From IMG/VR virus record IMGVR_UViG_3300043438_001049: DNA of 64,000 bases, one strand, 5' to 3'. Each line of letters opens with the position of its first letter. Position 1 is the first letter of the stretch. The stretch is from an uncultured virus (IMG/VR IMGVR_UViG_3300043438_001049) (lineage: Duplodnaviria; Heunggongvirae; Uroviricota; Caudoviricetes). Position numbers and translations under genes: made by a program. The notes under the pieces were generated by a model. It saw only the letters and a list, made by a program, of their open reading frames with translations, was not told where the DNA came from and did no database searches. Shown piece by piece: positions 4,812 through 30,400 of the stretch.

Positions 4812-4835
4812 AATGTGATTATACCATAAAAAAGA

Positions 4836-5362: not shown

Positions 5363-5376
5363 GGAGTTTATTAAAA

Positions 5377-6329: not shown

Positions 6330-6525
6330 ATATTATTACAAACCAATTTTTGAAAAAGTCCAAGAAGCATATCTGGCAAATGCCAAAAAAGACTACGAGC
6401 CAGGAATTTATATTGAGTCTAATGTGGATATTGTTGTAAATGCAGATTCAGAAGAGCATGCAAATATGATTTGCTATGGGTTTATTGATGTAGGTATGTG
6501 GAAATTATATCAAATTAAGGATTAA
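6313..6525 (+). CDS. Hypothetical protein
   Basis: Coupled small ORF. Confidence 0.45.
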   Translation: MAHLPKYYYKPIFEKVQEAYLANAKKDYEPGIYIESNVDIVVNADSEEHANMICYGFIDVGMWKLYQIKD

Positions 6526-6975
6526 GGTTTAGGCCATATTTTTTACAAATTGGGCTATCTCATGTGCTGCTTCATGATGTGTACCGTGAAATTTTAACTC
6601 GATCTGGTTTGCAATATGTTGTCTAAGTCTTTGCTCGATATTAAATAGCAAAACCGCTTGTTTTTGTTCTGGAGTTAACTCTTGATGATCACTATTCATT
6701 TTTGCAAGAACATCCTGAGCAACAAGTTTCTGAAAATATTTTTACAGCCAACGAAGAGTCGTCTGTAGGTCTGCCCATATTGTCTGTTGATTGCATGGGT
6801 TTGGATTCGAATAAGAAATCGTTATCCCAGGCATTTTCTAGATTGTCCAGAATTCCCATTTAATTATTCCTGTGGTGCACTCATATGAGGATTAGTGCAT
6901 GTGCATGCTTTGCAGCAGTTATCACCATCATAATTTGTTTCGGTCATAGATATATTATAGCACCATTCTGAAAAA

Positions 6976-7572
6976 TTATTTTTTTAAGTAATCTATCATT
7001 CTTTGAAGGATCTCTACGCTGTCTTTGGCATTACCTAGCGCAGCATTACAGTGATGACACAACAAACCTCTAATACAATTACCACAGGCCCTAGTTCCAG
7101 GACAGCAGGAATGATTATGGTCTACAGATAGGCGCTTTCTAAATGTACTTTCTTTTAAACCACAAATCCTACAACTATAGTCTTGATCTTCTAGCATTTT
7201 ATGATATTGCTCCATTGTCAAACCATATCTTTCAATATTTCTTGTATGTCTAAGTATGGGAGCACAAGTAATACAATATGATAATTCTTTATATTTAACG
7301 TTTTTAGATTGCTTCATTTCCTCTTGAGGAAAATACTCTCCACAGTTTCGACAATGAATATTGCCAGAAGAGTCTAATTTTCTAGGAAATATACGTGTGG
7401 CATCATTTTCTTTAATGTCATATGCCTTTACACAAACCTTGCACCAAGGCTTTAGTTTATCTTGTGCTTTAGAGTACTTGTGAAAATGTAAGGGTTTTTT
7501 ATATTCCCTGCAATTTGTACATTGCTTTTGGCCTTTGTCATTGTATTGAACTTTTGTGTATTCTTTTCTCAT
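6976..7572 (-). CDS. Endonuclease VII-family (HNH) nuclease with N-terminal Zn fingers
   Basis: RYGLT...QDYSCRICG...LSVDHNH...IRGLLCHHCNAALG. Confidence 0.85.
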   Translation of the reverse strand: MRKEYTKVQYNDKGQKQCTNCREYKKPLHFHKYSKAQDKLKPWCKVCVKAYDIKENDATRIFPRKLDSSGNIHCRNCGEYFPQEEMKQSKNVKYKELSYCITCAPILRHTRNIERYGLTMEQYHKMLEDQDYSCRICGLKESTFRKRLSVDHNHSCCPGTRACGNCIRGLLCHHCNAALGNAKDSVEILQRMIDYLKK

Positions 7573-7726
7573 ACTATAAGTATATCATAAAATTCAGATT
7601 TATTCAGATTTCTATATTGACACTTTTTGGAATATTTTATTCAGATGTACGATACACACTATACAGAAAATGCACACAAAAAAATAGTGCGCCCATAACA
7701 GACGCACTAGATCTTGGGAAAACCTT

Positions 7727-7909
7727 CTACTTCATTCTACCCTGTATCCATCCATTGTGTATACCTATGATGGGTGCATCAATACATACCGCCACACCTT
7801 GGTGTAGGGTGCTTCCCATCAATTCAATGAACTCGTGTACATGCTCCTTGGTATCGAATTCCATACCCCGCGTTGTACCGCTTGTTGTTGTTAGTGTTAA
7901 TTTAATCAT
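7727..7909 (-). CDS. Hypothetical early protein
   Basis: Small ORF with SD-like GAAAGG. Confidence 0.5.
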   Translation of the reverse strand: MIKLTLTTTSGTTRGMEFDTKEHVHEFIELMGSTLHQGVAVCIDAPIIGIHNGWIQGRMK

Positions 7910-8051
7910 TGTGTTACCTTTCGCATGTGTGCTACTACATTGACAGAAACCTTTTGTAGGTCTGCTACTACCTTGTTCATTTCATCTGCTGAGTTAGCAG
8001 TAAGCCCTGCGCCTAGTAATTGTGCGCCGTCCCATAGTGAGTAAGTGATAG

Positions 8052-8237
8052 TCATTTGATAAGCCCTCTTTTCTTTAGCAATTCTTGAGCCTTAGCGATT
8101 TGCTCAGGTGTAGCGTTGCGATAAGCGTTAATTGTTTCTCTTATCCATGGTGACTTAGCCATAGCCTTTTCATGGGCTTCATGGCGAGCAATAGCCTGCT
8201 CTGCTTGTATTCTATTTAGTGTATTCATCTTGAACAC
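8052..8237 (-). CDS. Hypothetical early protein
   Basis: Downstream of TTGACT-17-TATACT promoter; SD GAAAGG. Confidence 0.5.
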   Translation of the reverse strand: MFKMNTLNRIQAEQAIARHEAHEKAMAKSPWIRETINAYRNATPEQIAKAQELLKKRGLIK

Positions 8238-8251
8238 CTTTCTTTATTTTG

Positions 8252-8483
8252 TATACTGCAAGTATAACAGAGAAATGTCAAAAAGTCAAGTCCTAGCACG
8301 GCGTGTCGCATGTGATGTCCGTCACACGGCACGTGTCAAATCGACACACCGATAACCTCACTATTGTTACGCAATCGTTATAATTCTCCCTAATAATGTG
8401 ACCTACCTCTCATGTGATACACCTCACAATGTCCTTAATGTCCGTTTTGCACCCCTCAATTTGTCAGACCCCCCTGCTATACT
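8252..8483. promoter_or_regulatory. Divergent promoter hub with CRP-type sites, CACGTG and GACAC boxes
   Basis: Minus promoter 8252-8289; TGTGA-N6-TCACA at 8311 and 8413 (near match at 8397); CACGTG 8330; plus promoter TGTCAG-N10-TATACT 8462-8483. Confidence 0.75.
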
Positions 8484-8529
8484 TACAGTATAAAGAAACA
8501 CAAGCGGTAAAGAAATCCGCTAAAGAAAG

Positions 8530-8721
8530 GTGGTCAATATGACTACATTAGATAAAACAACAGTATGCGTAGAGCATAACCCTTATTTCACCGCTATCTC
8601 AGAGGTCGGAGATGTGCAATACACATTCTGCCAAGATTGCGAACAGAATATAGACCGCTTTTGGCTAGACTATGGAATGGAACGACTACCAGAGTGGTCA
8701 GATTGGTCGGTTACTAAATGA
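8530..8721 (+). CDS. Small Cys/His Zn-finger-like early protein
   Basis: CxxH...CxxC. Confidence 0.55.
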   Translation: MVNMTTLDKTTVCVEHNPYFTAISEVGDVQYTFCQDCEQNIDRFWLDYGMERLPEWSDWSVTK

Positions 8722-8918
8722 ACGACACTAATCAATTCTTAGACACTATGCAATTCATAGATGAGCAAGGCTTATGCGCTATGGATAACATCTGCGCTTT
8801 TTGCATAACACTATTTGACGGGTGGAATAGATTTTGCCCAGCATGTAAGGACTACAAGGGCGTTATGGCTCTCCCTGATTTTATCAACACTTATGGAAAG
8901 GAAGGACTCAAGAGATGA
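8718..8918 (+). CDS. Small Zn-ribbon early protein
   Basis: CAFC...CPAC. Confidence 0.55.
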   Translation: MNDTNQFLDTMQFIDEQGLCAMDNICAFCITLFDGWNRFCPACKDYKGVMALPDFINTYGKEGLKR

Positions 8919-9407
8919 GTACCTATGTACCAATTAAATCCGTATGTGGTGCGGTAACTACCACAATCGACCAGTATGACTATGACCTAAACCCTCATGG
9001 TGTTATCTGTTGCGATAACTGTAACTCTATCGTGTTATGCCGTAAGGCTTGGGATTTCCTATACAAGGAGGTTAAGTAATGAATAACTATGAGTTTAATG
9101 TCTATGTAACAGTAGAGGCAGAGTCCTATGATGAGGCCATTGATGTATTCGAGTTTCAATTAAAATACGGAATAAATAAAGATAATGTTTATTGTGCAGA
9201 TATAAAAGATTTGGGGATAAGCGAATGAAAACACTTCAAGAAAAACTTGACGCAGTAGCGTTAGAATTAGAGCCAGTACTTTGGGAATTACTAAATGAAA
9301 TCGAGGATAAATAAATTGTTATTAGTTTTAATTGCAATGATTGTGTTTGGCTTTTTGTATTCACTCTAGTAGTAAAGATCGCATGGATAAATACCCTGCG
9401 ATTTTTG

Positions 9408-9640
9408 CACGTGGCGGTTATCCACAAGGGGTGTGTATAACTAATGTGTTTAAGGTCACACCTTTATTTCCCCCATTTACGGCGTGTCGATTTGACTTTT
9501 TGACATTTCTTTGCTATACTTCTAGTATAACAATTAAATAATGACTAATTAAGCAATGAGCCTTAGCAAATAAATGTGACCAGTATCACAATGAGCCTAA
9601 GCAAATAAGTGCCCAATTTGTCAGACCCCCCTGTTATACT
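9408..9640 (+). promoter_or_regulatory. Cassette header: CACGTG, inverted DnaA-box pair, CRP-type sites, two promoters
   Basis: CACGTG 9408; TTATCCACA 9418; TGTGTATAA 9432; TGTGT-N6-TCACA 9445; TTGACT-17-TATACT 9492-9520; TGTGA-N6-TCACA 9575; TGTCAG-N10-TATACT 9619-9640. Confidence 0.8.
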
Positions 9641-9673
9641 TATATTAACAAACAAACGAAAGGTAGTCACTAA

Positions 9674-9859
9674 ATGACTTACACTGTAAAACTCGAAACC
9701 TATTCAGGTTCCGTAAAAAATATCCCCCTATCAACTAAAGGACAGGTTGCAGATTTTATCTCTAACTATCCTAATGCGTTACCTGTTGGCGTATCTGTTA
9801 AAGTATCTTGCGACATGCTAGGTATTCGTGGAACACTTAGAGGAAAGGCACTTATCTAA
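9674..9859 (+). CDS. Hypothetical early protein
   Basis: SD GAAAGG; downstream of promoter. Confidence 0.55.
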   Translation: MTYTVKLETYSGSVKNIPLSTKGQVADFISNYPNALPVGVSVKVSCDMLGIRGTLRGKALI

Positions 9860-10032
9860 TGATAAACTCAGTACTCTCTATCCCTTGCGAAGAATGCCAC
9901 GCAACAGGTTTAATCTTTTTTGGCGATGAAGATAATTTCGATGTAGAATCTTGCGTATGCGATTTTGGCATGGAGCAAGACCTTAATTTATTCAATACAC
10001 CCGAATCAAACTAAAGAATAGGAAATAAAAAA

Positions 10033-10242
10033 ATGACAGTATCAATCGAACACAACCTAAAGTTTATCACAGAGGTAGACGAGACTCACCCCGTAGGAAT
10101 GCAACTGCTTAGACTTTCAGAGTCAATGCAAATTGTAATGCTTGAAGGAATGCTAAAAGAGTTACTTGCTCCCCGCATTCAACCCGCCATTGATGAATTA
10201 AATGCTAATGGTTCATATGCAATTCTTAAGGTGGTCAAATAA
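10033..10242 (+). CDS. Hypothetical early protein
   Basis: ORF track, SD. Confidence 0.55.
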   Translation: MTVSIEHNLKFITEVDETHPVGMQLLRLSESMQIVMLEGMLKELLAPRIQPAIDELNANGSYAILKVVK

Positions 10243-10427
10243 TGATGACACGCAAAGACTATGTAGCAACCGCAGAAATCCTGCACGGATTTAAAGATTT
10301 AATCGGTGACCAATTAGTTTTTGAAGATTTGGTCGATGAGTTTTCGCTAATGTTTGAAAGCGATAACGAAAGATTTGACCATGTAAAGTTTTTCAATGCT
10401 TGCCATAAGGAAATGGAGTTAGTGTAA
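10242..10427 (+). CDS. Hypothetical early protein (MTRKDY family)
   Basis: MTRKDY...DNERFD..KF..AC pattern common in phage early genes. Confidence 0.6.
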   Translation: MMTRKDYVATAEILHGFKDLIGDQLVFEDLVDEFSLMFESDNERFDHVKFFNACHKEMELV

Positions 10428-10723
10428 TGACAACAACAACAACAACGACAACTACATCAACAAACCCAGCAACAGTTACAACTACTGCAACTGCAACTCT
10501 CTTGCCATGGAATGGATTTGCAATTTCGGGCTTTGTTCTTTCACTTACTATTTGGCCAATGGCTTTTATCTTTAGTCCAATAGCACTTAGCCAATTTAAA
10601 AGAAATGGTGAAAACTGGAACAGAGGTAAAGGTCTTGCAACTGCAGGTTTAATTATTGCAATAGTGCAAGCAGTTTTTACTGTTTTGTTTTGGGATTATC
10701 TTCTTAGCGATATGGAATACTAA
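10427..10723 (+). CDS. DUF4190-like membrane protein with poly-Thr N-terminus
   Basis: NGFAISGFVLSL...IALSQ..R.GE..RGKGLATAGLII. Confidence 0.65.
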   Translation: MTTTTTTTTTSTNPATVTTTATATLLPWNGFAISGFVLSLTIWPMAFIFSPIALSQFKRNGENWNRGKGLATAGLIIAIVQAVFTVLFWDYLLSDMEY

Positions 10724-10737
10724 TCCTATAATAAATT

Positions 10738-10763
10738 ATCCTGAGCATGATTTAAAACTGCTC
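10738..10763 (+). ncRNA. Pseudoknot motif copy 1
   Basis: ATC-C-TGAGCA-T-GAT-TTAAAAC-TGCTC. Confidence 0.6.
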
Positions 10764-10784
10764 GATCTTTTAACAAAAAAAATG

Positions 10785-10967
10785 CACGTGTGACTTATCC
10801 ACAGGCTGTGTATAACTTTAAGTAGCATGTGATTTTTTTCACACTCTCTGAGCGTCTCATTATTTAAGACTACTCGCTAGTAGGTTGATAATTTATGACT
10901 AATAGGCTAGACTTACATAGTAAGAAAAAATAAATAAGCAAGATTTGTCAGACCCCTATGGTAGGAT
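10785..10967 (+). promoter_or_regulatory. Cassette header: CACGTG, inverted DnaA-box pair, CRP-type site, TGTCAG promoter
   Basis: CACGTG 10785; TTATCCACA 10795; TGTGTATAA 10807; TGTGA-N6-TCACA 10828; TGTCAG-N10-TAGGAT 10946-10967. Confidence 0.8.
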
Positions 10968-11001
10968 AAAGTTAATAACAAAAAAAGAAAGAGGTTGCCC
11001 A

Positions 11002-11208
11002 ATGGCTACTAAACTATACACAATACAGGATTTACTAATTGGTAAAAACTATCGTTCCCGTAATCGTCACTTTGAGGGAGAAATTATTTCTGCCTCTCCC
11101 CGCCCTGCAATTTGGTATGGAGAAAATACCGAAGCATATGTCATTGAAATCTATGACCGCACTTTGCGAAGTAAGTTTGCAACAGTAGCAGTAAAGGTTG
11201 GTGAGTAA
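11002..11208 (+). CDS. Hypothetical early protein
   Basis: ATG at 11002 with SD GAGG. Confidence 0.55.
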   Translation: MATKLYTIQDLLIGKNYRSRNRHFEGEIISASPRPAIWYGENTEAYVIEIYDRTLRSKFATVAVKVGE

Positions 11209-11429
11209 TGAATAACGAATACCTATACGCAGTAACAGTATCGTATGATAGTAACCCCGTTCATTGGACGGGTCGTTACTCTGATGCACTAAGTGCAGTT
11301 AATGCTTTCAACGAAATTGTTGATTGGGGATTTGCTGATGAATATTCAACAGTTAATTTATCTGAACCAAGTGGAAAGATGCACACCCGCACTTTCTATC
11401 GTGAAGGACGAAAGGTCGTAACAAAATAA
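11208..11429 (+). CDS. Hypothetical early protein
   Basis: Coupled ORF. Confidence 0.55.
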   Translation: MNNEYLYAVTVSYDSNPVHWTGRYSDALSAVNAFNEIVDWGFADEYSTVNLSEPSGKMHTRTFYREGRKVVTK

Positions 11430-11698
11430 TGGGAAGCGTAACTGCACTCGGTATTCAAGATACCGTACTTGATTTAGAAACACAATTAGCCTATCACTTA
11501 CAGGGTAATCACTATCCTCCAGTACCGCTATCTATGGTGCAACCTTGCATAGATGCTATTGACGCATACTATGATGAGGACTACCGCAGAGAGATAGATT
11601 TGCCTCAAGGAGTGTTGTGGCGTGGGCAGGTTACTGCACCAGCAGATGCAATAATTGAGCAACACCATTTATCTTTTTGGCTACCAGAGGAGGACTAA
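11429..11698 (+). CDS. Hypothetical early protein (NHYPPVP family)
   Basis: HLQGNHYPPVP...IIEQHHL. Confidence 0.6.
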   Translation: MGSVTALGIQDTVLDLETQLAYHLQGNHYPPVPLSMVQPCIDAIDAYYDEDYRREIDLPQGVLWRGQVTAPADAIIEQHHLSFWLPEED

Positions 11699-11932
11699 AT
11701 GTCTGATACAATAAACAATATGGAACTTAGATTTGCTGATAACTTAAAACCATCTCAACTTATAGAAGGCGATCTAATTAAGGTTGATGATGAATATGTA
11801 ACTATTGAAACCATTACAGAAAATGAAGATGGATTTAATATTTATACTAGAAATGATTTTAATGAAGAGGGTCACATTTATTTATTTGATGATGAAACTA
11901 TTGAGTGGTATGTATTCTTTGAAGAAGACTAA
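11699..11932 (+). CDS. Hypothetical acidic protein
   Basis: Adjacent ORF. Confidence 0.5.
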   Translation: MSDTINNMELRFADNLKPSQLIEGDLIKVDDEYVTIETITENEDGFNIYTRNDFNEEGHIYLFDDETIEWYVFFEED

Positions 11933-11971
11933 TCACTAAAGTATTTTTATGTGCTTCCCCGCATAAAAATG

Positions 11972-12040
11972 CACGTGGCGCCTGTGTGAGATTTATCACA
12001 TTTTAAGAATTTGACATTTATTCCCCCTGTATGCTAAGAT
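11972..12040 (+). promoter_or_regulatory. Cassette header: CACGTG, CRP-type site, TTGACA-18-TAAGAT promoter
   Basis: CACGTG 11972; TGTGAGATTTATCACA 11985-12000. Confidence 0.75.
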
Positions 12041-12353
12041 TAATTATGAAGAAAAATCCAGAGGAATTACGCAGGCTTATGGAATTACGCCGTAGCAATG
12101 CGGCCTCTGCCGTGCCCTCTAAGAAATCCTATAACCGTAGGAAATGTCAGTCCGAAATGCTACAATTAAAACAACAAGAAGGAGAATAGCCCCATGGGAA
12201 ATATCGCAGATGAATTCTATGATGAATACTATGCAACAACCTGCCCTGAATGTAAAGAAAATGCGGTAGACGCATATGAAGAAAAATGCACTCATTGTTT
12301 ACTAGAAGAAATGTCCGCAACCTATAACGAAGACATTGCTCTAGAAATGAGTC

Positions 12354-13094
12354 TTGGCCTTGACTACTAATACACTTAAACTAAAACGCTCTAAAGATAG
12401 AAAGGTTGCTAATGCCGTCACACCTAATGGAAAACAAGCAAGTATCGCAAATACCTTTGGCCTCCCTGCTGGAAAGGCTTTCTCGTGTCCTGGTGCCACG
12501 AGTGTATGTGAATCCGTATGCTATGCAGGAAAACTCGAAAAGATCTTCCCAACCGTAAAAGTTAACCTGCTACACAATTGGGCCCTGCTAAAAGACGCAG
12601 ACTATTTAACTATGCTTAATCTCATTGCTGAGATGATTGCTGATTTCAAGGCAGACTGTATCAAGAAAGACGCTCCTATGCTATTCCGTATCCACTGGGA
12701 CGGAGATTTCTTTAACGATACTTATACTACCGCATGGTCTGATGTAATCAAACTTAATCCTGATGTACAATTTTGGGTATACACTCGTGTTAAGTCTGCA
12801 GCACTAATCTTAAAAGACATTGATAATCTTAGTCTTTATTTTTCTGCTGATAGTGAGAATGTAAAAACTGCCGTTGATTTAAAAATTAACAGTGGTGTAC
12901 GCATGGCATACCTTGCTAAGAATTTTGCAATTGGTAAGGCAGACATAAAAGAAATGATTGGTAAGCCTGCTGCTAAGTGTCCTGAGAATAATAAACAGAT
13001 TCCACTTATCTCAACAAATGGAAGCGCTTGCGTTTCTTGCTCACTTTGTGTATACTCTAAGAGTGACATAATTTTTTCATCGAGTAAGAAATGA
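12354..13094 (+). CDS. Phage gp88-like Cys-rich protein
   Basis: FGLPAG..CPGA...C...CYA...FRIHWDGDF...FWVYTR...CP...C..C..C. Confidence 0.7.
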   Translation: MALTTNTLKLKRSKDRKVANAVTPNGKQASIANTFGLPAGKAFSCPGATSVCESVCYAGKLEKIFPTVKVNLLHNWALLKDADYLTMLNLIAEMIADFKADCIKKDAPMLFRIHWDGDFFNDTYTTAWSDVIKLNPDVQFWVYTRVKSAALILKDIDNLSLYFSADSENVKTAVDLKINSGVRMAYLAKNFAIGKADIKEMIGKPAAKCPENNKQIPLISTNGSACVSCSLCVYSKSDIIFSSSKK

Positions 13095-13333
13095 GATAAC
13101 ATGCGTAGTACTCAAGTTATACTTTTATTTTGGTTGTTGCTTCTTTTATTTTTCCACCAATAAAATAAAAGGGGCCACGTCGCCAAGATCGAGGTTTGTC
13201 AAGTTTATGATAGGCTTTTAAGATGTGATTAAGGACACACCGCAAATCCTCCGCTGGATTGGTATTTATGACATTTTTATGCTAAAATTATACTATAAGC
13301 AATTAACCCCCACAACAGAAAGGCAAGACCCAA

Positions 13334-13504
13334 ATGACACTACACGGATACACTTACCAAATTGGTGATTTATTCACAACAAGCAAGACAGGCGTTACAG
13401 GTCGTATTGCAGGATTTACACCAATGTCTAATAAGGTTACTAGAGTTAGTTTAATCCTAGCCAATGGCGCACAACGCCTTGCTATGGTCAAGACCTCTAA
13501 GTAA
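13334..13504 (+). CDS. Small SH3/KOW-like protein (paralog 1)
   Basis: 56 aa, below ORF-track cutoff: MTLHGYTYQIGDLFTTSKTGVTGRIAGFTPMSNKVTRVSL... Confidence 0.6.
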   Translation: MTLHGYTYQIGDLFTTSKTGVTGRIAGFTPMSNKVTRVSLILANGAQRLAMVKTSK

Positions 13505-13610
13505 TCTCACAATGTGAGAAATGTTAAGTTTCGATTTGACATTTTTATCTGCAAAATGTTATACTTAGGTATAACCAAATAACAACCCCTAAACAGAAAA
13601 GAGAAAAACA

Positions 13611-13775
13611 ATGTCAGTAGCAACAGCAACATACAAGGTAGGCGATACCTACACAACACAGAAGTCAAAAGTTAGCGGAGTAATTCAAGAAATTAACCCA
13701 CTACCAAATGGTAATGTGCGAGTTAAGTTAGATGTAGATGGAAAGCCACGCTACACAACTTGGACGGCTAAGTAA
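13611..13775 (+). CDS. Small SH3/KOW-like protein (paralog 2)
   Basis: 54 aa: MSVATATYKVGDTYTTQKSKVSGVIQEINPLPNGNVRVKL... Confidence 0.6.
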   Translation: MSVATATYKVGDTYTTQKSKVSGVIQEINPLPNGNVRVKLDVDGKPRYTTWTAK

Positions 13776-13786
13776 TACAAAACTAA

Positions 13787-13817
13787 CGACCTGAGTATGT
13801 CGGTGCAAAACTACTCA
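13787..13817 (+). ncRNA. Pseudoknot motif copy 2
   Basis: CGAC-C-TGAGTA-T-GTCG-GTGCAAAAC-TACTCA. Confidence 0.6.
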
Positions 13818-13860
13818 ACCACCCCCTAACAAATACCCCACAAAAGAAAAGAGAAAACAA

Positions 13861-14283
13861 ATGGCTAGAGGAAAAGCAATTTCGGTTAAAATCGCAACAC
13901 CAAAAATCATCAAGGCACTAGAGCAATCACTTGCTAAGTTAGAAGCAGACTACTCATCACAAGAAGCAAATGAAGCAAAGTACGAGAAGGCTCGCAAAGT
14001 ATGGCAGAAAGAAATTATTGACTATGCCGTAGCAAACATCAAGAAGGCAGAAAACTTCCGTACTAACTATCGTCATTGGTCAAACACTCTTAACATTGAC
14101 TTTGACTTAACAGTTACAGAAAAAGACATGCCTAAAGAGCCTGAGAAGGACTTTGTTACAATGCACCAACACTCATACAATGAGCAGAAAGCAGAAATCT
14201 CTAACGCAATCCGTATTCTGAAAATGACAGATGAGGAAACAGTAAATACTAGCACCTACAATGCGGTTGCTCAATACCTATAA
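13861..14283 (+). CDS. Hypothetical early protein
   Basis: 140-aa ORF with A-rich leader. Confidence 0.65.
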   Translation: MARGKAISVKIATPKIIKALEQSLAKLEADYSSQEANEAKYEKARKVWQKEIIDYAVANIKKAENFRTNYRHWSNTLNIDFDLTVTEKDMPKEPEKDFVTMHQHSYNEQKAEISNAIRILKMTDEETVNTSTYNAVAQYL

Positions 14284-14390
14284 ATGAAATTGGGGGAGGC
14301 GTAAAAACCTCCCTCAACTTTCGCCAGGCTGATTAGGGCGATAATAGAAATACTATAGAGCAAGGCTCCTGCAGGCCTAAAGAAGCAGAC

Positions 14391-14417
14391 ATCCTGAGCA
14401 CGATCCAAAAAGGCTCA
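14391..14417 (+). ncRNA. Pseudoknot motif copy 3
   Basis: ATC-C-TGAGCA-C-GAT-CCAAAAA-GGCTCA. Confidence 0.5.
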
Positions 14418-14491
14418 CCCTTAAGGGGACTTGACAAATGTCAGTGGCGCCCTGTACAATTAAATTAAACCAACTACAGAAAGAGGCCCCC

Positions 14492-14920
14492 ATGGACCAA
14501 ACAGAAGAATCAGTAACAGTAATACCAAACACAACGCAAGAATTCCTTTTATCTCAGATTAAAATAAAAGATGAGCGTATTGCTCAACTTGAAGAGCACA
14601 CTCAAAAGGTAACCCAGCGCTCTTATTCCGATTCAGCAGACCGTAACCGTATGGTTGAGGGAATGAAGGACTGGACCCTTAGTGAATTAAGTAATGAAGA
14701 CATCACTGAGTCTCAAGCAGAACAAATTGCTGAAATCATGGGCTTTGAATTAACAACAGAGTTTGAATTGGAAGTTACAGTTCTTTATTCAGTTACTGTT
14801 AATGCTCGTGATGAAGAGTCTGCACAGAATGTAATTCACGATATTGATTTTGATACCGTGCAATATGACTCAGATAATATTTCTTGGTTGTCTTCATCCG
14901 TTGATAGAATAGATATTTAG
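14492..14920 (+). CDS. Hypothetical acidic early protein
   Basis: ATG 14492 with SD GAGG. Confidence 0.6.
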   Translation: MDQTEESVTVIPNTTQEFLLSQIKIKDERIAQLEEHTQKVTQRSYSDSADRNRMVEGMKDWTLSELSNEDITESQAEQIAEIMGFELTTEFELEVTVLYSVTVNARDEESAQNVIHDIDFDTVQYDSDNISWLSSSVDRIDI

Positions 14921-14968
14921 TAGGGGGCTACTAATACAGACATATCGAATGTCTATAAACTAGGTAAG

Positions 14969-14997
14969 GGCCCTAAGCATGGCCATGTAAACTGCTT
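14969..14997 (+). ncRNA. Pseudoknot motif copy 4
   Basis: GGCC-C-TAAGCA-T-GGCC-ATGTAAAC-TGCTT followed by T-tract. Confidence 0.55.
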
Positions 14998-15018
14998 TTT
15001 CTTTTTTTACAAAATTTG

Positions 15019-15138
15019 CACGTGGGGTTTATCCACAGGTTTATCCACAGGCTGTGATTAAGATCACCTTTAAGAAATGTCCGAATTGCCCCATGTATAC
15101 TTATACGATTTGACTTTGTCAGTCCACCCATGTATACT
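15019..15138 (+). promoter_or_regulatory. Cassette header: CACGTG, tandem DnaA boxes, CRP-like site, promoter
   Basis: CACGTG 15019; TTATCCACA 15029 and 15041; TGTGA-N6-TCACC 15053; TTGACT-17-TATACT with TGTCAG 15110-15138. Confidence 0.8.
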
Positions 15139-15168
15139 TAGATTAACAACAACAGAAAAGAGAAACTC

Positions 15169-16185
15169 ATGGCACATGACCTAGAAACACAAAACGGCGT
15201 TGCATCATTTGCATCATTCCGTGAACCTGCTTGGCATGGATTGGGTACTGTATTCACAGAAGAAAAAACTACATCAGAAATGTTGGCGCTTGCTAATCTT
15301 TCTAATTGGAATGTTCGTCTTGAAGATTTAACAGTACCGACCCACTTATCATCAGATAAGAATTATCAATATGTATTGCGTACTAACCCTACAGATACAA
15401 CACAGACCGACATTCTTGGTGTCGTTGGTGAGCGTTACCATGTAATGCAGAATGAAGATTTATTCTCATTCGGTGACAACATTCTAGACGGCGGAGGCCG
15501 TTGGGAGACTGCTGGCTCAATTAAGGGTGGCCGTGTTGTGTTCGGTGCGTTGGCACTAGAGCGTGAGACTGTCCTAGACCCTAGCGGTGTTGCCGATAAG
15601 GTAAAGACTTATTTACTTATCAACACATCACATGATGGCTCAATCGCTATTCAAGCAAGCATCACACCTGTTCGTGTTGTGTGCGCTAACACTCTCAATC
15701 TTGCTCTTGGCTCAATCAAGAAAAAGAATGGCGTCAAGCAATCATTCAAGATTCGTCATACACAGACTGCAAGCGGTAAGGTTGCCGTTGCTCGTGAGAC
15801 TCTTGGAATGGCTAACAAGTACATGGACGCATTTGATATTATGGCTAAGGCTATGATTGAAAAAGAAGTCAATGCTAAGCAATTCAATGATATTGTATTG
15901 GCTGCATATGCAAAACCAGAAACAGATGCTAAGGGTTCGCTAAAGAAGTGGGAAAATAAAATTGATTCAATCAATGATATTTACACAGGCGAGTTTAATG
16001 GTATGATTGCTGGTAGTGCTTGGGGTGCTTTCAATGCACTAACCGAACGCCTTGACTGGTATCGTTCTGCTCGTGGTGGTTCTAACGAATCAATCCTTGC
16101 ATCAGCATCAGGATTTGACCCTGCTATCAATGCAGAAAAGAATCGTTTGCTAAAAGTTGTACAAAATGTAATGCAACTCGCATAA
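15169..16185 (+). CDS. DUF932 / TIGR03299 phage-plasmid-like protein
   Basis: REPAWHGLG...WETAGSIKGG...NTSHDGS...TPVRVVCANT...KIRHT. Confidence 0.85.
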   Translation: MAHDLETQNGVASFASFREPAWHGLGTVFTEEKTTSEMLALANLSNWNVRLEDLTVPTHLSSDKNYQYVLRTNPTDTTQTDILGVVGERYHVMQNEDLFSFGDNILDGGGRWETAGSIKGGRVVFGALALERETVLDPSGVADKVKTYLLINTSHDGSIAIQASITPVRVVCANTLNLALGSIKKKNGVKQSFKIRHTQTASGKVAVARETLGMANKYMDAFDIMAKAMIEKEVNAKQFNDIVLAAYAKPETDAKGSLKKWENKIDSINDIYTGEFNGMIAGSAWGAFNALTERLDWYRSARGGSNESILASASGFDPAINAEKNRLLKVVQNVMQLA

Positions 16186-16191
16186 CAAAAA

Positions 16192-16219
16192 AATCCTAAG
16201 CATGATTCTAAACTGCTTG
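16192..16219 (+). ncRNA. Pseudoknot motif copy 5
   Basis: AATC-C-TAAGCA-T-GATT-CTAAAC-TGCTTG. Confidence 0.6.
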
Positions 16220-16224
16220 CAATG

Positions 16225-16314
16225 TTTAATGGTCAGGCGCAGGTAAGAGTGCTAAGGGCTCGGAGGGTTGCGCGGATACAAACCCCCGAAATTAATAGTC
16301 ACACCGCCATTAAA
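16225..16314 (+). ncRNA. Candidate structured RNA upstream of tRNA-Asp
   Basis: TTTAATGGT/GCCATTAAA closing stem with internal GC-rich hairpins. Confidence 0.4.
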
Positions 16315-16321
16315 CTTAATT

Positions 16322-16395
16322 GGAGTGTTAGCATAGTTGGTTAATGCGCTACCCTGTCACGGTAGAGATCACGGGTTCAAGTCCCGTACACTTCG
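16322..16395 (+). tRNA. tRNA-Asp (GTC)
   Basis: GGAGTGT/ACACTTC acceptor, CTACC-CTGTCAC-GGTAG anticodon arm, GGTTCAAGTCC T-arm. Confidence 0.92.
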
Positions 16396-16863
16396 CAAAA
16401 TCGCCACGTGTGGAAATTAGTACAAATCGGACATAAAAATGTCAAATAAAATAAACTTTACGATAGTCAAACCTTTTCCCCAAAAATGTCAAACCTAAAA
16501 ATCTTTACGATAGAGTTGACATTTCCCCCAATCTCTGCGATAATTAATACATGACCCAAACAATGAGAACGATTGACGAATTAGTCAATGAGATGTACAT
16601 GGACAATGAGCCACATCTCGAATACATGGAGAATATGAACGGTGGGGATTGTGATTGTAACATCCACACTACCTTGAACACAATAGTCAAATACTGGTGG
16701 GATGAGGAGAACTAATGTTAGGCTATGAACTATCAGACTTAGATATGATGATTGCTAATGTAAACATTGCCTCTAAACAATTAAACAACTCAGGTATTGC
16801 TAAAGGTTTGGAAGAAGTTTCTTCATTCCTCCAGGGACTATGGGCAGAAGGGTACTTTGACTA

Positions 16864-17151
16864 ATGTGGAGCAAGTATACATTTGTTTGTGACCCTGATG
16901 AGTGTGACGCTCTTCTTGAGTTTACCGCTAGAGATGGCTTTGGCTTTCCCCTGGGATCTGTAGAGATGAAATGCCCATGTGGACGCTGGATGGCTTACAT
17001 TAGCATTGAAGAGGTTTGGTCCCCCATCATTGATACTATAGAGATGCTTAATGATTTTAAGAAGCAAGCAGGCATAGCCATAGACTCTTTGGATGTGATG
17101 AAGGTCACACCCCCACAACTTGTAAAAATCAACACCAACCCGTATAATTAA
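16864..17151 (+). CDS. Small Cys-rich protein
   Basis: CDPDEC...CPC. Confidence 0.5.
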   Translation: MWSKYTFVCDPDECDALLEFTARDGFGFPLGSVEMKCPCGRWMAYISIEEVWSPIIDTIEMLNDFKKQAGIAIDSLDVMKVTPPQLVKINTNPYN

Positions 17152-17299
17152 TATATGGACCTAAACACATTCCGAGAATATATCCGATTGCATGCCATAT
17201 CCCTTGAACAGGATTTGGAAAACGAGGACGGTGCTGATAGCATTGTTCCTTATCTTGAAGGAGCCATTAATGTATCCCGCCACTATTTGGAGGTAACCA

Positions 17300-17587
17300 A
17301 TGAACGATAACACTACCCTTGACCCATACCTAATGAAACTAGTAGAACTTGGTATGGACGGAGCAGATATCCTGCACGGTCACCTTAAAGTTTTAATGGT
17401 TGAGGCAGAGAAGCAATTAGACCTGTGCATTGAAGCAGAGGAGTATTCAGAAGAAGCAATGGACTCAATGGCTCGTACAGAGGCTTCAGGCTATTTTGAC
17501 GCACTGTGTGAGGTCTATGCCCTAACTTATGCTATCGCTTTTGCCAAGGAAGAAGTAAAGAACCGCAAGGAGATTCTTGGTGAATAA
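17300..17587 (+). CDS. Hypothetical protein
   Basis: SD GGAGG. Confidence 0.6.
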   Translation: MNDNTTLDPYLMKLVELGMDGADILHGHLKVLMVEAEKQLDLCIEAEEYSEEAMDSMARTEASGYFDALCEVYALTYAIAFAKEEVKNRKEILGE

Positions 17588-18020
17588 CGAACGCTTTATA
17601 GAAATGACTGAGGAAGAATGGTTTGAGACTTATAAGCCTGTTAAGAATCATCTTGAAACCACATCTTCATTTGACGGACACATGTTTGAGACATATGGCT
17701 CAGAGGTAGAGTTTGTTAAGTCTATCCCTGAAGACCGTATCTGGATGCTTGGAGACGGTGACGACGGTGGTATGTACATCTGGAACGGCTGGGGATTTGT
17801 AAATAGAATAGGATACTTTGTCACTGAGGTACCCTGCCCACCTGACACGACTATTCAGGTCCAAGTAGGTATACCTTGGTATTACTGTGAGGCCTGTGAC
17901 TCAGAATGGGAAGACCCTGATAATCTTATTAGAGATGCCTTCCAAGAAGAGGATTTGGAAAAATGCCCTAACTGTGCTACCATTGAAGAAATGACCCTAG
18001 TAGGATTGGATAACAAATGA
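17577..18020 (+). CDS. Hypothetical protein with C-terminal Zn ribbon
   Basis: FETYG...FVNRIGYFVTE; CEAC...CPNC. Confidence 0.6.
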   Translation: MVNNERFIEMTEEEWFETYKPVKNHLETTSSFDGHMFETYGSEVEFVKSIPEDRIWMLGDGDDGGMYIWNGWGFVNRIGYFVTEVPCPPDTTIQVQVGIPWYYCEACDSEWEDPDNLIRDAFQEEDLEKCPNCATIEEMTLVGLDNK

Positions 18021-18355
18021 CAAAATATGTAATAGATGAACTTACCTTAGTAGGAAGTTTTGCTGTTGACTCAGGCCAAGCAATGGTGGGCGACCCATGC
18101 TACCTTGACCAATGGAAAACAAATGAGGGTGAGCCATGGGATATGGAAGGCAAGATAGGAGAATACTCTTATCAAGGTGCTAGTGCTACAACGATTAACT
18201 CTAACGCAGGGGAGTTAGGAATTGGTAGCGCAATTGTATTTAACACAGGCTATGGTGACGGTTACTATCCTGTTTATATAAAGACAAATCAAGACGGACG
18301 AGTTGTAAAGGTAGTAATTGACTTCGAAGGCGACCTAGATGAGGAGCAAGACTAA
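18017..18355 (+). CDS. DUF4241-like protein
   Basis: VDSGQ..GDPCY...TGYGDGYYPVY. Confidence 0.6.
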   Translation: MTKYVIDELTLVGSFAVDSGQAMVGDPCYLDQWKTNEGEPWDMEGKIGEYSYQGASATTINSNAGELGIGSAIVFNTGYGDGYYPVYIKTNQDGRVVKVVIDFEGDLDEEQD

Positions 18356-18720
18356 TGGGTGCACGGATCAACTATGTATTTAAAGATTCATTAACTAAGC
18401 CTTCAGTTGTACTTTATAGTCACTGGGGTGAGACCGAATGGCAGCGGGACCTAGCAATGGCCCTGCAGCATTCAAAGCCTAGGTGGATAGACGCCTCATA
18501 TGGTACCCGCATGATGATTAGTTATCTTACGCAAGACTCAGTCTTGGATGAGACAGGGTTTGGTATCTATGCTATTAATAACGGTGACTATGAATTTTGG
18601 GACACCACTGTAATCATCGACTTCAATACTAAGACTATTAATGAACTGGGCTCAGACATCCATGTTGATTGGGACCTATTCATAGCAGCCTATCGACCAG
18701 TTTTAATGGAGCAAATCTAG
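18355..18720 (+). CDS. Hypothetical protein
   Basis: MGAR...LYSHWG motif; coupled. Confidence 0.6.
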   Translation: MGARINYVFKDSLTKPSVVLYSHWGETEWQRDLAMALQHSKPRWIDASYGTRMMISYLTQDSVLDETGFGIYAINNGDYEFWDTTVIIDFNTKTINELGSDIHVDWDLFIAAYRPVLMEQI

Positions 18721-18812
18721 GGAGTGGGTCCTCTAGATTATAGGGTGGAAGGGGCAGGCGTGGGGCTTGCTCTTTCCCCCACTTTTTGGTACAATAGATA
18801 CAAGGGAGAACT

Positions 18813-19019
18813 ATGCGTATAAGCAGACGGGTCACAGAGGAAGAAAAGGTAGCCATGAAGTTAGGCAACATGGTATCTGACCTCCGAGTTGATTTGGAAT
18901 TAGTCGGGGAATACCTAGCAAAGTCTCAGCCCTATGTCGTGTATAATAGATTACAGACAATAGCAGAGTCAGCCAAAGAAACTAAGGAAGGTACAAATTA
19001 TGCCATTAACGGATTTTGA
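18813..19019 (+). CDS. Hypothetical protein
   Basis: SD GGGAG. Confidence 0.55.
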   Translation: MRISRRVTEEEKVAMKLGNMVSDLRVDLELVGEYLAKSQPYVVYNRLQTIAESAKETKEGTNYAINGF

Positions 19020-19260
19020 TAGCAGGGCTTTAATTCTTGGACAGTTATGGGTCAATTATAAAAGTGATGACGAATGGACAGACTTCTTCGCTTATAGCGA
19101 TTTAGGTTTGCCACTTGCTTTCTCTTTTGCTGAAGGCATTGTCAATCACACACCATCACTTGAACAATACATAAACGAGACATGGGATTTGTTTATTGAA
19201 GGTTTGGGTATTGAAGATGAAGGTTTTGCACGACTGGAAGATATCTTCACAGAAGAGTAA
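19000..19260 (+). CDS. Hypothetical acidic protein
   Basis: YSDLGLPLA motif; SD. Confidence 0.6.
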   Translation: MPLTDFDSRALILGQLWVNYKSDDEWTDFFAYSDLGLPLAFSFAEGIVNHTPSLEQYINETWDLFIEGLGIEDEGFARLEDIFTEE

Positions 19261-19262
19261 CT

Positions 19263-19961
19263 GTGCCCCGAAAGGGCACGTGCATTATCATTCAATAACA
19301 AACCATCAAACCTTATAGCCAAAAGACATTACGAACCTCCAAATCTTTCCCCCTCCAGAACATTACGATCCAAACCTTTGTTTCCCCAAACTAGGTGTAT
19401 ACTTTATATATGAGTCCAAGACATTTTGCAAACCTTTATAAGCAAACCTCCCATCGCCATGATAGCCCAAGTGATGGTGATATATTTAATAAAGACTTTG
19501 GTGCTATATGTGGTATGTTGTATAGTGTTGTAACTCTTAAGGCTTTCTTTCCTAAGTCCCCCGCCCCAGCGATGACTGATAATCCTATCACTGACGGCAA
19601 CGGCGGGGATCAAGAAGAACAAAACAAACCCCTATAGAATAACAAACCATTATCTCCTGGTTTCTTTAAATAACATAAAGGTTTGTTAAAAAAAGATTAC
19701 GATATGTGCAAATTTCTCCCTGGTTTCTGGGGATTTTTTATAGGGTTTTAAGGTTTGACAAACCATTATATCTGTGGTACCATCCGCTGCGAGATAGTTT
19801 GTAAGGTTTGGGGTTTTAAGGTTTGAGGTTTGGGGCCCCCAAGACATTACGAACGCATCGTTAAAAGCGCCCCATTCTCCACTATCCTCCACTTCACTCC
19901 ACTTCTAGGGTGTCTAATAAGATAATCAGTAAGATTAATCTGTGGATAAACCTGTGGATAA
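19263..19961. repeat. Repeat-rich cis element (CAAACC/GGTTTG, ATTACGA, CTCCACT repeats) ending in two DnaA boxes
   Basis: CAAACC x8, GGTTTG x5, ATTACGA x4, CTCCACT x3, TGTGGATAA 19941 and 19953. Confidence 0.7.
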
Positions 19962-19963
19962 CT

Positions 19964-20512
19964 TTATGAAATAAAGCCTAGGCTATCTCTAAACCTATAT
20001 GCCTCATCAAGCATTGGATTATTTGGGACTGAAAGGTGAGAGTAATCTGACAAATTATCTGGATTTAAAAACCTTACAAACATCATCCTAATATACTCTC
20101 CTTCTTTAAAATGCTTCAAAACCCTCCAATGAATTTCTTTATTTGCATTAAAGATTAAGGCACAGTTATCCTCTAACTTATAAGTTTCTAGGTTTAACCC
20201 TATATCCCAAACGGTATTAGACTCTAACTGTATACTAACAATCAGGTCATTAGTGTCTCCATCAAAATGAGGATTTAGTTCAGGGTTTCCATATAAAAGG
20301 CTATACTCTACAGACATGGCAGAGCCCATCTCTAAAGGTTTGCCAATCTCCTTTAGTTTCTCAATAGTCTCTGGGAGTAGTAGGCTTTCTAAATCACGAA
20401 CCTGAATCCTGCCTAACTCATTATCAATAATTGTTGGGCTTTCTGATATTATTTTCTTTATATGATCTATTTCTTTTTTTGAAAAAATGTTATTTATTCT
20501 TGTTATTGACAT
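19964..20512 (-). CDS. 2OG-Fe(II) oxygenase-like protein
   Basis: PHFD (HxD)...IHWR. Confidence 0.65.
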   Translation of the reverse strand: MSITRINNIFSKKEIDHIKKIISESPTIIDNELGRIQVRDLESLLLPETIEKLKEIGKPLEMGSAMSVEYSLLYGNPELNPHFDGDTNDLIVSIQLESNTVWDIGLNLETYKLEDNCALIFNANKEIHWRVLKHFKEGEYIRMMFVRFLNPDNLSDYSHLSVPNNPMLDEAYRFRDSLGFIS

Positions 20513-20565
20513 ACAAATATTGTACCATAATTGACCTGTGGATAACTCTATGATATGATAGATAT

Positions 20566-20754
20566 ATGTTAGATATCAGAGGCATCCCAACACCTGCATG
20601 TCCTTGTTGTGGCTCTACACTCTTGAGGGTTACTGTAGAGTTTGATCCACAAACTTATGAGATTCAGATGTATCTTTTGGATGATGCCCAATGTGTAGAA
20701 TGTAAGTGTCTTATCACTGCTCCTACTCCATTAGACCATCCAGACTATGTATAA
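20566..20754 (+). CDS. Small Zn-finger protein
   Basis: CPCCG...CVEC; leaderless promoter. Confidence 0.6.
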   Translation: MLDIRGIPTPACPCCGSTLLRVTVEFDPQTYEIQMYLLDDAQCVECKCLITAPTPLDHPDYV

Positions 20755-20786
20755 CTCTGTTAACCATAATGTGATAAAATAGACCA

Positions 20787-20939
20787 ATGGACAGATTCGA
20801 ATCATCATATAACAAATTCTCTTTAGGCTATACAAACCCTATGATCAATGTCCTATGCTATGAATGTGGTGGTATGTATCAAACCCAGTATGGTAGAGAA
20901 GATGTTACAAAACAATGTCAAAAATGCGACGGTAAATAA
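20787..20939 (+). CDS. Zn-ribbon microprotein MDRFESSY family copy 1
   Basis: 50 aa, CYEC...CQKC; leaderless promoter. Confidence 0.55.
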   Translation: MDRFESSYNKFSLGYTNPMINVLCYECGGMYQTQYGREDVTKQCQKCDGK

Positions 20940-20984
20940 AGATTACGATACACCAGATACTTCCCCCTATGGTATGATATATAC

Positions 20985-21584
20985 ATGGATAAAATTATAG
21001 AAGCCTCCAACAACAAGACATATGCCCTATTTAGGGGGCTATGCAAAGATGTGCCTAACTGGTCAGATTTCATAGAAAACTTTGATTATAACTACAATAG
21101 AGACAAAGACAAAAATAAAAATAATCCAGACCGTAGATACCTTACAGACCACATTATGGTTTATAATAAGTTTGACCCCATCATCTTTAATGCTATAGAA
21201 GACAAAACCACTAGACTATTTGATAAGTCATTAGAGGCACAAAGCCTTATAAAAGGTTTGACAAAAAATAAAATCAGTTCAATTAAAAGTATTATTAACT
21301 TCCTAGGCAATGAGCAGGAATACTGGATCCATAGTGATGACCACGCTGTTATCTCCTGGCACTGTGTTGGTACCATTGAGTGGAGATTCTATAAAAATGT
21401 TAAAGAAGAGGATATGGAGAAAATAAGCATTGAAGGTGCCGAGTATGACTCCGTAGTCCTTGAACCAGGAGATGTGGTATATGTGCCTGCTGGGGTGGTA
21501 CATCAGGTTATTAATAACAAACCTAGAGCATCTTTAGTATTTCAATATTTTCCAGATTCTGACGCTATAGGGAATACTTACTAG
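20985..21584 (+). CDS. JmjC/cupin-like protein
   Basis: HSD...LEPGDVVYVPAGVVHQV. Confidence 0.8.
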   Translation: MDKIIEASNNKTYALFRGLCKDVPNWSDFIENFDYNYNRDKDKNKNNPDRRYLTDHIMVYNKFDPIIFNAIEDKTTRLFDKSLEAQSLIKGLTKNKISSIKSIINFLGNEQEYWIHSDDHAVISWHCVGTIEWRFYKNVKEEDMEKISIEGAEYDSVVLEPGDVVYVPAGVVHQVINNKPRASLVFQYFPDSDAIGNTY

Positions 21585-21640
21585 TATAGGGATTACGATC
21601 CTTTCTTGACATCCCCCGCAATTTCTGATACAATCAATAT

Positions 21641-21925
21641 ATGAACCAATTTATGCAAGACTATGCCTCATGGGTCCTCGCTGTCATTGGGGTTGCAGGT
21701 ATATATTTTGTTGGCCGTAAGAGTTTCTTCGGCTGGTATATTCTTCTATTCAATGAGACCCTATGGATGATATACGCTATTACTACTGAGCAATATGGTT
21801 TTATCTTCTCTGCTCTTGCATATGCAGCAGTATATATTCAATCACATAGGCACTGGAAGGCTTTAGACAAAGAACAGTTGTCTTGGAGGAGTTTTACCAA
21901 GTTAGTTTGGGACCGTAATGATTAA
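21641..21925 (+). CDS. Small membrane protein (PnuC-like)
   Basis: Three hydrophobic helices; GW...W..YA. Confidence 0.45.
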   Translation: MNQFMQDYASWVLAVIGVAGIYFVGRKSFFGWYILLFNETLWMIYAITTEQYGFIFSALAYAAVYIQSHRHWKALDKEQLSWRSFTKLVWDRND

Positions 21926-30314: not shown

Positions 30315-30388
30315 GCACCAGTAGCCAAGTTGGTTAAGGCACCGAACTCATAATTCGGCTATCGTAGGTTCAAGTCCTACCTGGTGTA
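30315..30388 (+). tRNA. tRNA with CAT anticodon (Met or Ile2)
   Basis: GCACCAG/CTGGTGT, CCGAA-CTCATAA-TTCGG, GGTTCAAGTCC. Confidence 0.9.
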
Positions 30389-30400
30389 CAATTAAGTAAT

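Follow-up and report, generated by a model that had tools for sequence, protein, structure and literature searches.

DnaA boxes beside the inner boundary of a predicted long direct terminal repeat in an uncultured lake-water phage

What does a short, repeat-rich element do at the point where the early genes of a phage end? The question is raised by positions 19263-19961 of a 64,000-nucleotide (nt) stretch of IMG/VR record IMGVR_UViG_3300043438_001049, an uncultured virus of the Caudoviricetes; the whole of this stretch is referred to as the window. A first-pass annotation, made from the sequence alone, described a strand-switching repeat element, which was taken to be either the boundary of a long terminal repeat or first-entry segment, as in phage T5, or an iteron-type replication origin. 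The region is a composite of several elements and not one non-coding element. Judged from sequence comparison with relatives, we favour on balance the interpretation that it straddles the right junction of a ~12.2 kb direct terminal repeat, predicted at 7652-19844 and closed by a DnaA-box block. The left five sixths (19263-19844) would then form the tail of this repeat, in which the early genes lie, and the right sixth (19845-19961) a junction block just outside the repeat, running from the CATTAC at the predicted terminus to two co-oriented boxes.

Related contigs were found in 24 sequencing runs, and all 22 runs with an organism label are labelled lake-water metagenome. The records used for comparison were G001, a near-identical IMG/VR record, and G003, a complete relative of 118.7 kb; 92% of the sampled 31-letter words of the window are common to one IMG/VR record. 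By its replication and early proteins, the phage is closest among cultured phages to Streptomyces phages in the family Stanwilliamsviridae, with 52-55% identity for the DnaE-type polymerase. The DUF932 protein is 53-54% identical to proteins of the BE-cluster phages of this family and matches two places in each BE record. At the nucleotide level, no match to positions 18000-21000 was found among cultured phages. In PMC5764925, BE-cluster phages are described as siphoviruses of more than 130 kb with direct terminal repeats of ~11 kb and a G+C content of ~50%, and their ends were mapped via read pile-ups and 2-fold coverage. The G+C content of the window is ~37%. While the BE ends are mapped, those of the window are predicted only, and nucleotide homology between the two is limited to short terminus motifs.

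The junctions of six BE phages of the Boydwoodruffvirinae (Jay2Jay, EGole, Braelyn, Yaboi, Wofford and Bmoc) were examined. A self-match of the Jay2Jay record (NC_029098.1) places the second repeat copy at 122,094 and gives a repeat of 11,438 bp, listed as 10,778 bp in Table 1 of PMC5764925; in alignments, the inner end of the self-match repeat coincides with the record ends of four further BE phages. All six phages have DnaA boxes at the right ~11 kb repeat, at distances of 58-114 nt from its first base and outside it. At least two of these boxes are perfect in every phage but Bmoc, where one is perfect and the other has a single mismatch. When the whole Jay2Jay record was scanned, eight perfect TTRTCCACA sequences were found in 133.5 kb. 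Only two of them are closely spaced (22 nt start to start), and these precede the first base of the right repeat by 93 and 71 nt. In the first 14 kb of the same record, DnaA-box matches were about as frequent as expected (5 vs 6), and a repeat search in the first 1300 nt found nothing. A limited literature search found no mention of the junction boxes of BE phages. When flipped, the terminus at this junction reads R_end^(C/T/A)ATTACACAC in 6/6 (^ marks the physical end), and the six sequences diverge beyond the outermost box. The other physical end, also flipped, reads ^ATACATGC, 34 nt, TAGTGCGCCCATA in all five phages compared.

Both ends have counterparts in the window. At the right junction the order of parts matches that of the BE phages: variable G-rich DNA, AAGA^CATTACGAAC at 19844/19845, a 117-nt block, the boxes, and divergence after 19961. 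At 7652-7697 the spacing of the other terminus motif is 1 nt off (33 vs 34 nt) and the terminus reads ATACA. The 13-mer TAGTGCGCCCATA occurs once in the window, where 0.05 copies are expected. The same layout of ATACA and TAGTGCGCCCATA is present in G003 at 111157/111190, and the composite pattern was found in at least 119 IMG/VR stretches. In both the window and G003 the two motifs are oriented as the ends of a repeat would be, at a distance of 12,193 bp and 12,461 bp, respectively; in three further contigs the distance is ~11.2-12.9 kb (hand arithmetic from match tables). In addition, the window genes at 12354-13094 and 15169-16185 are colinear with, and inverted relative to, the Jay2Jay repeat genes at 4632-5336 and 1620-2612 (tblastn, 48% identity to 5336-4632 and 53% to 2612-1620, respectively). 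As in the BE phages, GP88-like and DUF932 genes stand in a fixed order and are transcribed towards the physical end, which is a predicted one in the window. The window shares with the BE phages a long repeat, as predicted, with these two genes, an xATTAC terminus and boxes within ~115 nt outside it. It differs in that an extra small gene and tandem promoters lie at the end of the predicted repeat. Given the presence of both BE terminus motifs and of the colinear repeat genes, the proposal in the first-pass annotation that ~7.7-20 kb is a long terminal repeat with the element as its boundary is supported by homology, with termini at 7652 and 19844/19845. In the unique DNA to the left of the predicted repeat, positions 7592-7651 were seen to hold three ATTCAGAT(T/G)T repeats, the last of which adjoins the predicted terminus.

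Contig depth was consulted as a further indication of a repeat. Summed contig depth rises in the bin 7668-8334 and falls across 19674-20340 in three of four runs (X2, X3 and X5), a pattern confounded by strain sharing. For exactly matching contigs, depth in the predicted repeat and outside it was 61.7 vs 31.2 in X2 and 87 vs 37.6 in X5, where depth is not copy number. Because of this, and because strains are shared, the depth step is a weak hint. Of 26 contig ends on the left side, ten lie no more than 275 nt to the left of the box anchor (binomial 2.6e-4). These clustered ends were considered as physical ends and rejected, as they have no single common base and are better explained by branching of the assembly graph at a strain-shared block.

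A number of observations weigh against the predicted boundary. The exact contigs of X1, which may be the source sample, have a depth of 25-52 inside the predicted repeat and 31-47 outside, with no doubling, and contig breaks at 19739 in X2 and X5 point to strain-level branching, which alone is able to make a depth step. The similarity at the right boundary is short, being restricted to CATTAC and the boxes. As ATTACGA occurs 11 times in the window, in promoter cassettes, the match to CATTACACAC could be due to chance. The geometry of the boxes also differs, the window having a tandem co-oriented pair with three weak inverted repeats whereas the BE phages have a convergent pair, beside which Jay2Jay, EGole and Braelyn carry a second, co-oriented box or near-box. 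Finally, the Loccivirinae are about as close to the window by DnaE, and none of three members has junction boxes or a repeat outside the range 788-2262 bp (BillNye, 2262 bp; Blueeyedbeauty, 788 bp; Wakanda, 1773 bp). These short repeats indicate that repeat length is not fixed in the Stanwilliamsviridae. The unique region of Wakanda was seen to end in GGTAATG, as in the BE phages.

The features of the predicted repeat, the junction and the surrounding DNA are collected in the table.

Table. Positions of features at and around the predicted repeat junction, numbered from the first base of the window (^ marks a predicted physical end).
Feature	Coordinates	Strand	Remarks
Predicted other repeat end, GATGTACG^ATACACAC, 33 nt, TAGTGCGCCCATA (7685-7697)	7652..7697		BE terminus motif
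Predicted direct terminal repeat with early block	7652..19844		12,193 bp; homologues of both BE termini
Second DnaA-box pair, TTATCCACA GGT TTATCCACA	15029..15049	+	Inverted copy of the 19941-19961 pair; upstream of DUF932 gene
G+C-rich hairpin	19263..19279		Directly after ORF 19000-19260; overlaps CACGTG 19277
Promoter cassette: CAAACC x3, ACATTACGA x2, TTTCCCC(C), -10 TATACT 19398-19403	19284..19409	+	
Conserved small gene, 75 aa, probably leaderless	19410..19637	+	ORF kept in relatives
Intrinsic terminator, 7-pair stem and T run	19717..19739	+	Stem and T run conserved in alignment
Sigma-70-type promoter P1: TTGACA, 17 nt, TACCAT, with TG	19755..19783	+	Reads towards boxes
G-rich (A/G)AGGTTTG tandem repeats	19797..19835	+	0-9 copies in relatives
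AAGA^CATTACGAAC	19841..19854		Predicted terminus between 19844 and 19845
Near-invariant junction block	19845..19961		Predicted first 117 nt of unique region; alignment of 19 relatives
CTCCACT x3, 10-nt phase	19877..19903	+	Each holds TCCAC, the DnaA-box core in opposite orientation
A+T-rich spacer with in-phase central-A triplets	19913..19940		Least stable 28-mer of element; top 2.4% of window
Two perfect DnaA boxes (TTATCCACA on - strand), 3 nt apart	19941..19961	-	
182-aa cargo gene, first of variable region	19964..20512	-	Own promoter overlaps DnaA box 20537
ORF, open reading frame; aa, amino acids.

From ATTACGA (19846), the junction block consists of TAAAAGCGC, the three CTCCACT repeats, the A+T-rich 28-mer and the two boxes. 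In an alignment of 19 relatives, in which the flanking protein is 64-100% identical, conservation restarts exactly at ATTACGA and ends within a few bases past the second box. A survey of 104 distinct 540-nt versions from IMG/VR contigs found the architecture to be kept. At least two perfect boxes are present in 101 versions (3 nt apart in 56, 2 nt apart in 41), ATTACGA lies upstream at the same distance in 97, and 92 have at least three CTCCAC-like repeats. A TTGACA-N16-18-TAnnnT promoter directed towards the boxes occurs at least once in 98 versions, with two or more in 22. Among loci found by the DNA pattern alone, 60 of 61 have the same 86-aa early gene on their left. The exact 21-mer of the box pair was also found in at least 120 stretches of bacterial genomes from many phyla, including freshwater Aquiluna, in varied flanks.

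Under the favoured interpretation, host DnaA would bind the two boxes cooperatively, possibly together with the three weaker inverted TCCAC repeats, and the DnaA-DNA complex would mark the boundary of the repeat. Such a complex may stop or position the terminase for its terminal cut, or it may halt DNA entry in a T5-like manner.

The second of these roles invites a comparison with the injection stop signal (iss) of T5. In the T5 record, iss (9140-10149) lies past the last + strand pre-early gene and a terminator, before the repeat end at 10219 and a convergent gene. Like iss, the window element is repeat-rich, with many direct and inverted repeats. Both are preceded by the final co-directional early gene with a terminator, are followed by a convergent gene, and are placed near the inner end of a long terminal repeat, ~10 kb in T5 and predicted in the window. 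In both, DnaA-type boxes occur in pairs of the same polarity 3 nt apart, as TGGGGATAA-GTC-TGTTGATAA and TGTTGATAA-GTC-TGTGGATAA in T5 and as TGTGGATAA-ACC-TGTGGATAA in the window. Boxes of opposite polarity lie upstream, 3.3 kb away in T5 (consensus boxes at 6121-6202) and 4.9 kb away in the window, where the box pair at 19941-19961 has a 22-nt exact inverted match at 15029-15050. In the relatives of the window, the upstream pair occurs in either orientation or is absent as a perfect 9-mer. There are also differences. The T5 boxes lie ~700 nt inside the repeat, while those of the window are predicted ~100 nt outside it. T5 has 131-nt inverted repeats, with the partner 2-4 kb upstream carrying further box pairs, and the window has only the 22-nt match. 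The T5 iss is annotated without a gene, and the window element holds a conserved gene. The T5-like anatomy suggested in the first-pass annotation holds for the terminator, the paired boxes and the upstream cluster of opposite polarity, but the region is not free of genes. In a preprint (10.1101/866236), membrane-bound DnaA has been proposed, as a hypothesis, to halt T5 DNA entry at iss.

DnaA boxes beside A+T-rich DNA are equally a feature of replication origins. As an origin, the block would have DnaA on the boxes open the A+T-rich 28-mer and recruit the DnaB-type helicase of the phage, with transcription from P1 (and P2 in relatives) through the G-rich DNA aiding opening or priming. We regard this as unlikely, and it may coexist with a boundary role, for example in copying the repeat. 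Consistent with an origin, the two perfect co-oriented boxes are separated by 2-3 nt and frequently joined by a third or fourth box in phase, and the A+T-rich flank lies 5' of TGTGGATAA, the same polarity as that of the 13-mers and box R1 in E. coli oriC, the origin against which polarity was compared. The spacer is the least stable 28-mer of the region and consensus promoters read into it, yet it ranks only in the top 2.4% of window 28-mers for instability. The phage encodes a helicase, a primase, SSB and DnaE, with no initiator seen in the window, but the replication genes are ~36-44 kb away. In the basal unwinding system of bacterial oriC, as described in PMC8287927, co-oriented consensus boxes no more than 3 nt apart likewise have A+T-rich DNA with central-A triplets 5' of TGTGGATAA. 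The formal search pattern of that paper (co-oriented boxes at most 3 nt apart, at least three NAN triplets within 16 nt) was matched by 5-8 in-phase central-A triplets after a 2-5 nt spacer, four of the eight A's being fixed by the search anchor. However, the triplets fit the GAT consensus poorly, and the element, unlike oriC, is only modestly unstable, lacks a skew signal and is at a predicted repeat boundary.

A cumulative GC-skew inflection had been put forward as a check of an origin. No extremum or turn was found at the element in the window or in complete G003, where skew tracks gene direction. Iteron origins such as P1 oriR, F and pSC101 have several iterons of 17-22 nt beside the gene for a Rep initiator. 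The features of the iteron-type origin offered by the first-pass annotation were not recovered: the repeats here are units of 6-10 nt, no Rep or initiator family was found in the neighbouring ORFs, and the skew shows no inflection. Furthermore, the similar pairs of T5 lie in its annotated injection stop signal, with no origin annotated in the first 11.5 kb, and other DnaA boxes of the window are inside promoters (9418, 10795, 15029 and 20537), which suggests a transcriptional use.

The boxes also bear on a purely transcriptional reading, in which the element would control expression between the early block and the variable cargo with no role at DNA ends or in replication. DnaA, or a phage protein of the same specificity, would be a repressor or roadblock; terminators would end early transcription, and the ATTACGA/CAAACC cassettes and P1 would start the next units. 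Boxes overlap promoters at 20537 and also occur upstream of early genes. The terminator and promoter are conserved; in all 19 aligned relatives the P1 hexamers are conserved and the spacer is variable. The -35 of P1 falls within the near-palindrome GGTTTG-A-CAAACC, and the spacer of relatives contains CAAACC-N2-GGTTTTG. ATTACGA cassettes at 20942 and 21592 precede + strand genes, and ATTACGA recurs at 5076-7847, immediately to the right of the boxes, in G003. We nevertheless consider this reading, taken by itself, quite unlikely. It leaves unexplained the near-invariant 117-nt non-coding block where flanking proteins are 64-70% identical, the fixed distance of the BE box cluster from a mapped terminus, and the conservation of the other BE terminus motif 12.2 kb away.

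Other features were seen around further DnaA boxes. The perfect box at 20537 belongs to two promoters in 20531-20559: it is part of the spacer on the + strand (TTGACC, 17 nt, TATGAT) and occupies the -35 position in the divergent promoter that serves the 182-aa gene. The boxes at 9418 and 10795 are part of a near-palindrome, TTATCCACAGGCTGTGTATAA, seen by eye. CRP/FNR-like palindromes (TGTGA-N6-TCACA or near) lie just past DnaA boxes in early intergenic regions, at 8310-8325, ~9440-9460, 10828-10843, 11985-12000 and 15055-15070; these too were seen by eye and are uncounted against chance. A tRNA-Asp (16322-16396) is inside the predicted repeat.

Two motif distributions add to the case for the predicted repeat. 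The seven perfect DnaA 9-mers of the window all lie between 9418 and 20537, six of them in the predicted repeat or at its edge. The hexamer CACGTG also follows the early block. Seven of its eight copies in the window are in this block (8330, 9408, 10785, 11972, 15019, 16405 and 19277, the last of the early region), and all seven sites of G003 are in its early block (112212-4299), where composition predicts ~15 genome-wide. The hexamer acts as a class mark of the early block, with avoidance of a restriction site elsewhere perhaps contributing. It was seen to open nearly every intergenic control module of the block.

Within 19263-19961, every motif count and position reported in the first-pass annotation was reproduced, including the two DnaA boxes at the end. 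The region holds eight of the 43 window copies of CAAACC (19299, 19307, 19371, 19429, 19443, 19625, 19643 and 19759), five of 32 of GGTTTG (at 19680-19827), four of 11 of ATTACGA (19328, 19362, 19696 and 19846), three of six of CTCCACT (19877, 19887 and 19897) and two of three of TGTGGATAA (19941 and 19953). Relative to the rest of the window, the enrichment of every motif is 10- to 100-fold or more (Poisson 9e-9 to 6e-5), and the switch from CAAACC on the left to GGTTTG on the right proved real on recount. As judged by their placement around promoters, CAAACC and GGTTTG are best read as half-sites of a DNA-binding regulator.

In contrast, the statement that ORFs here lack convincing features did not stand. 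Across 32 distinct nucleotide versions, which fall into two allelic types, ORF 19410-19637 is uninterrupted, with a conserved N-terminus and core, and the -10 hexamer lies 6 nt ahead of its ATG. Differences at codon positions 1/2/3 are 1407/893/1314 in one allelic type, which is weakly coding-like, and the coding call is made because the ORF is maintained. A search of Pfam and PHROG with a slightly longer frame from a GTG start (19395-19637) gave no family match. The layout ATTACGA, C-run, TAnnnT, 6 nt, ATG is also present before ORFs 20985 and 21641. Many genes of the window look leaderless, with TAnnnT, 5-6 nt and ATG without a ribosome-binding site (19398-19412, 20970-20987, 21625-21643 and, on the - strand, 20512-20545), and in genes of this type a C-run (TTCCCC) often lies 5-12 nt upstream of the TAnnnT hexamer. 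This pattern fits an actinobacterial host. T4-type phages have hyperplastic regions with repeated promoter cassettes (PeSL). The left part of the element resembles them in that a short repeated promoter module, here CAAACC, ACATTACGA, C-run, -10 hexamer and leaderless ATG, stands ahead of successive variable cargo genes. The sequence is different, and no stem-loop partner has been demonstrated here.

The complementarity of the two repeat families on one strand, the strong conserved promoter and AGGAGGT-like units in relatives would also be expected if the P1 transcript (~19790-19960) were a functional small RNA. It might pair via GGUUUG with CAAACC in the mRNA of the small gene, or, in a phage with leaderless mRNAs, titrate ribosomes with its Shine-Dalgarno-like GAGGU/GGAGGU repeats. 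We hold this to be highly improbable. Rfam 15 had no match to positions 18900-20700 with an E value of 1 or below. The folding z-score is -1.19, with 32 of 200 shuffles folding as well, and none of ten predicted pairs covaries, all being invariant. No terminator follows the P1 transcript, and the repeat number varies from 0 to 9. With no support from Rfam, folding or covariation, an RNA element was rejected.

A large variable cargo region begins directly past the DnaA boxes. Across 108 versions, the ORF nearest the boxes on the right lies on the + strand in 53 cases and on the - strand in another 53, and the 182-aa gene of the window was found at only 10 IMG/VR loci. Positions 20985-41414 were seen to include at least eight paralogous 2OG-Fe(II) oxygenase or cupin-like genes on both strands, together with polynucleotide kinase and glutathione-peroxidase-like genes and a carbamoyltransferase. 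The region also carries tRNA-Met (30315-30389) and tRNA-Arg (33281-33354). Far from the element, at 432-576, a 9-nt and 15-nt tandem repeat (GTTACAGGA x12) was seen in an ORF on the - strand that extends past the start of the window and adjoins collagen-like tail-fibre genes.

Long terminal repeats with host-takeover genes are known from SPO1 and Twort-like phages. T5 also has one, according to its record, as do the BE-cluster phages (PMC5764925). How the boundaries of such repeats are set, and why T5 has DnaA boxes there, are the questions that the present findings address. A box cluster is found at a fixed distance from mapped termini in all six BE phages and is conserved, at the homologous position, in more than 100 uncultured freshwater variants. 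Sites for a host protein that stay constant while the phage diverges are the expectation for a boundary that depends on a host factor. It is possible, though doubtful at this stage, that host DnaA is a co-factor defining the ends of long repeats, from soil Streptomyces phages to lake-water phages, through a box cluster ~50-115 nt outside the repeat that imposes either a cut-stop at xATTAC or a hold-back after the repeat has entered. If entry is held back, the two-step entry of T5, which depends on A1/A2-type pre-early proteins, would have a counterpart in another family with Gram-positive hosts, and the DnaA hypothesis for T5 would become testable in a second, genetically tractable system. For the uncultured phage, the gain is an exact and checkable prediction of its termini (7652 and 19844), and for its lineage a sequence rule to find long, collapsed terminal repeats in metagenomic contigs. 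Streptomyces and the BE phages would provide a tractable system in which to study DnaA in packaging or DNA entry.

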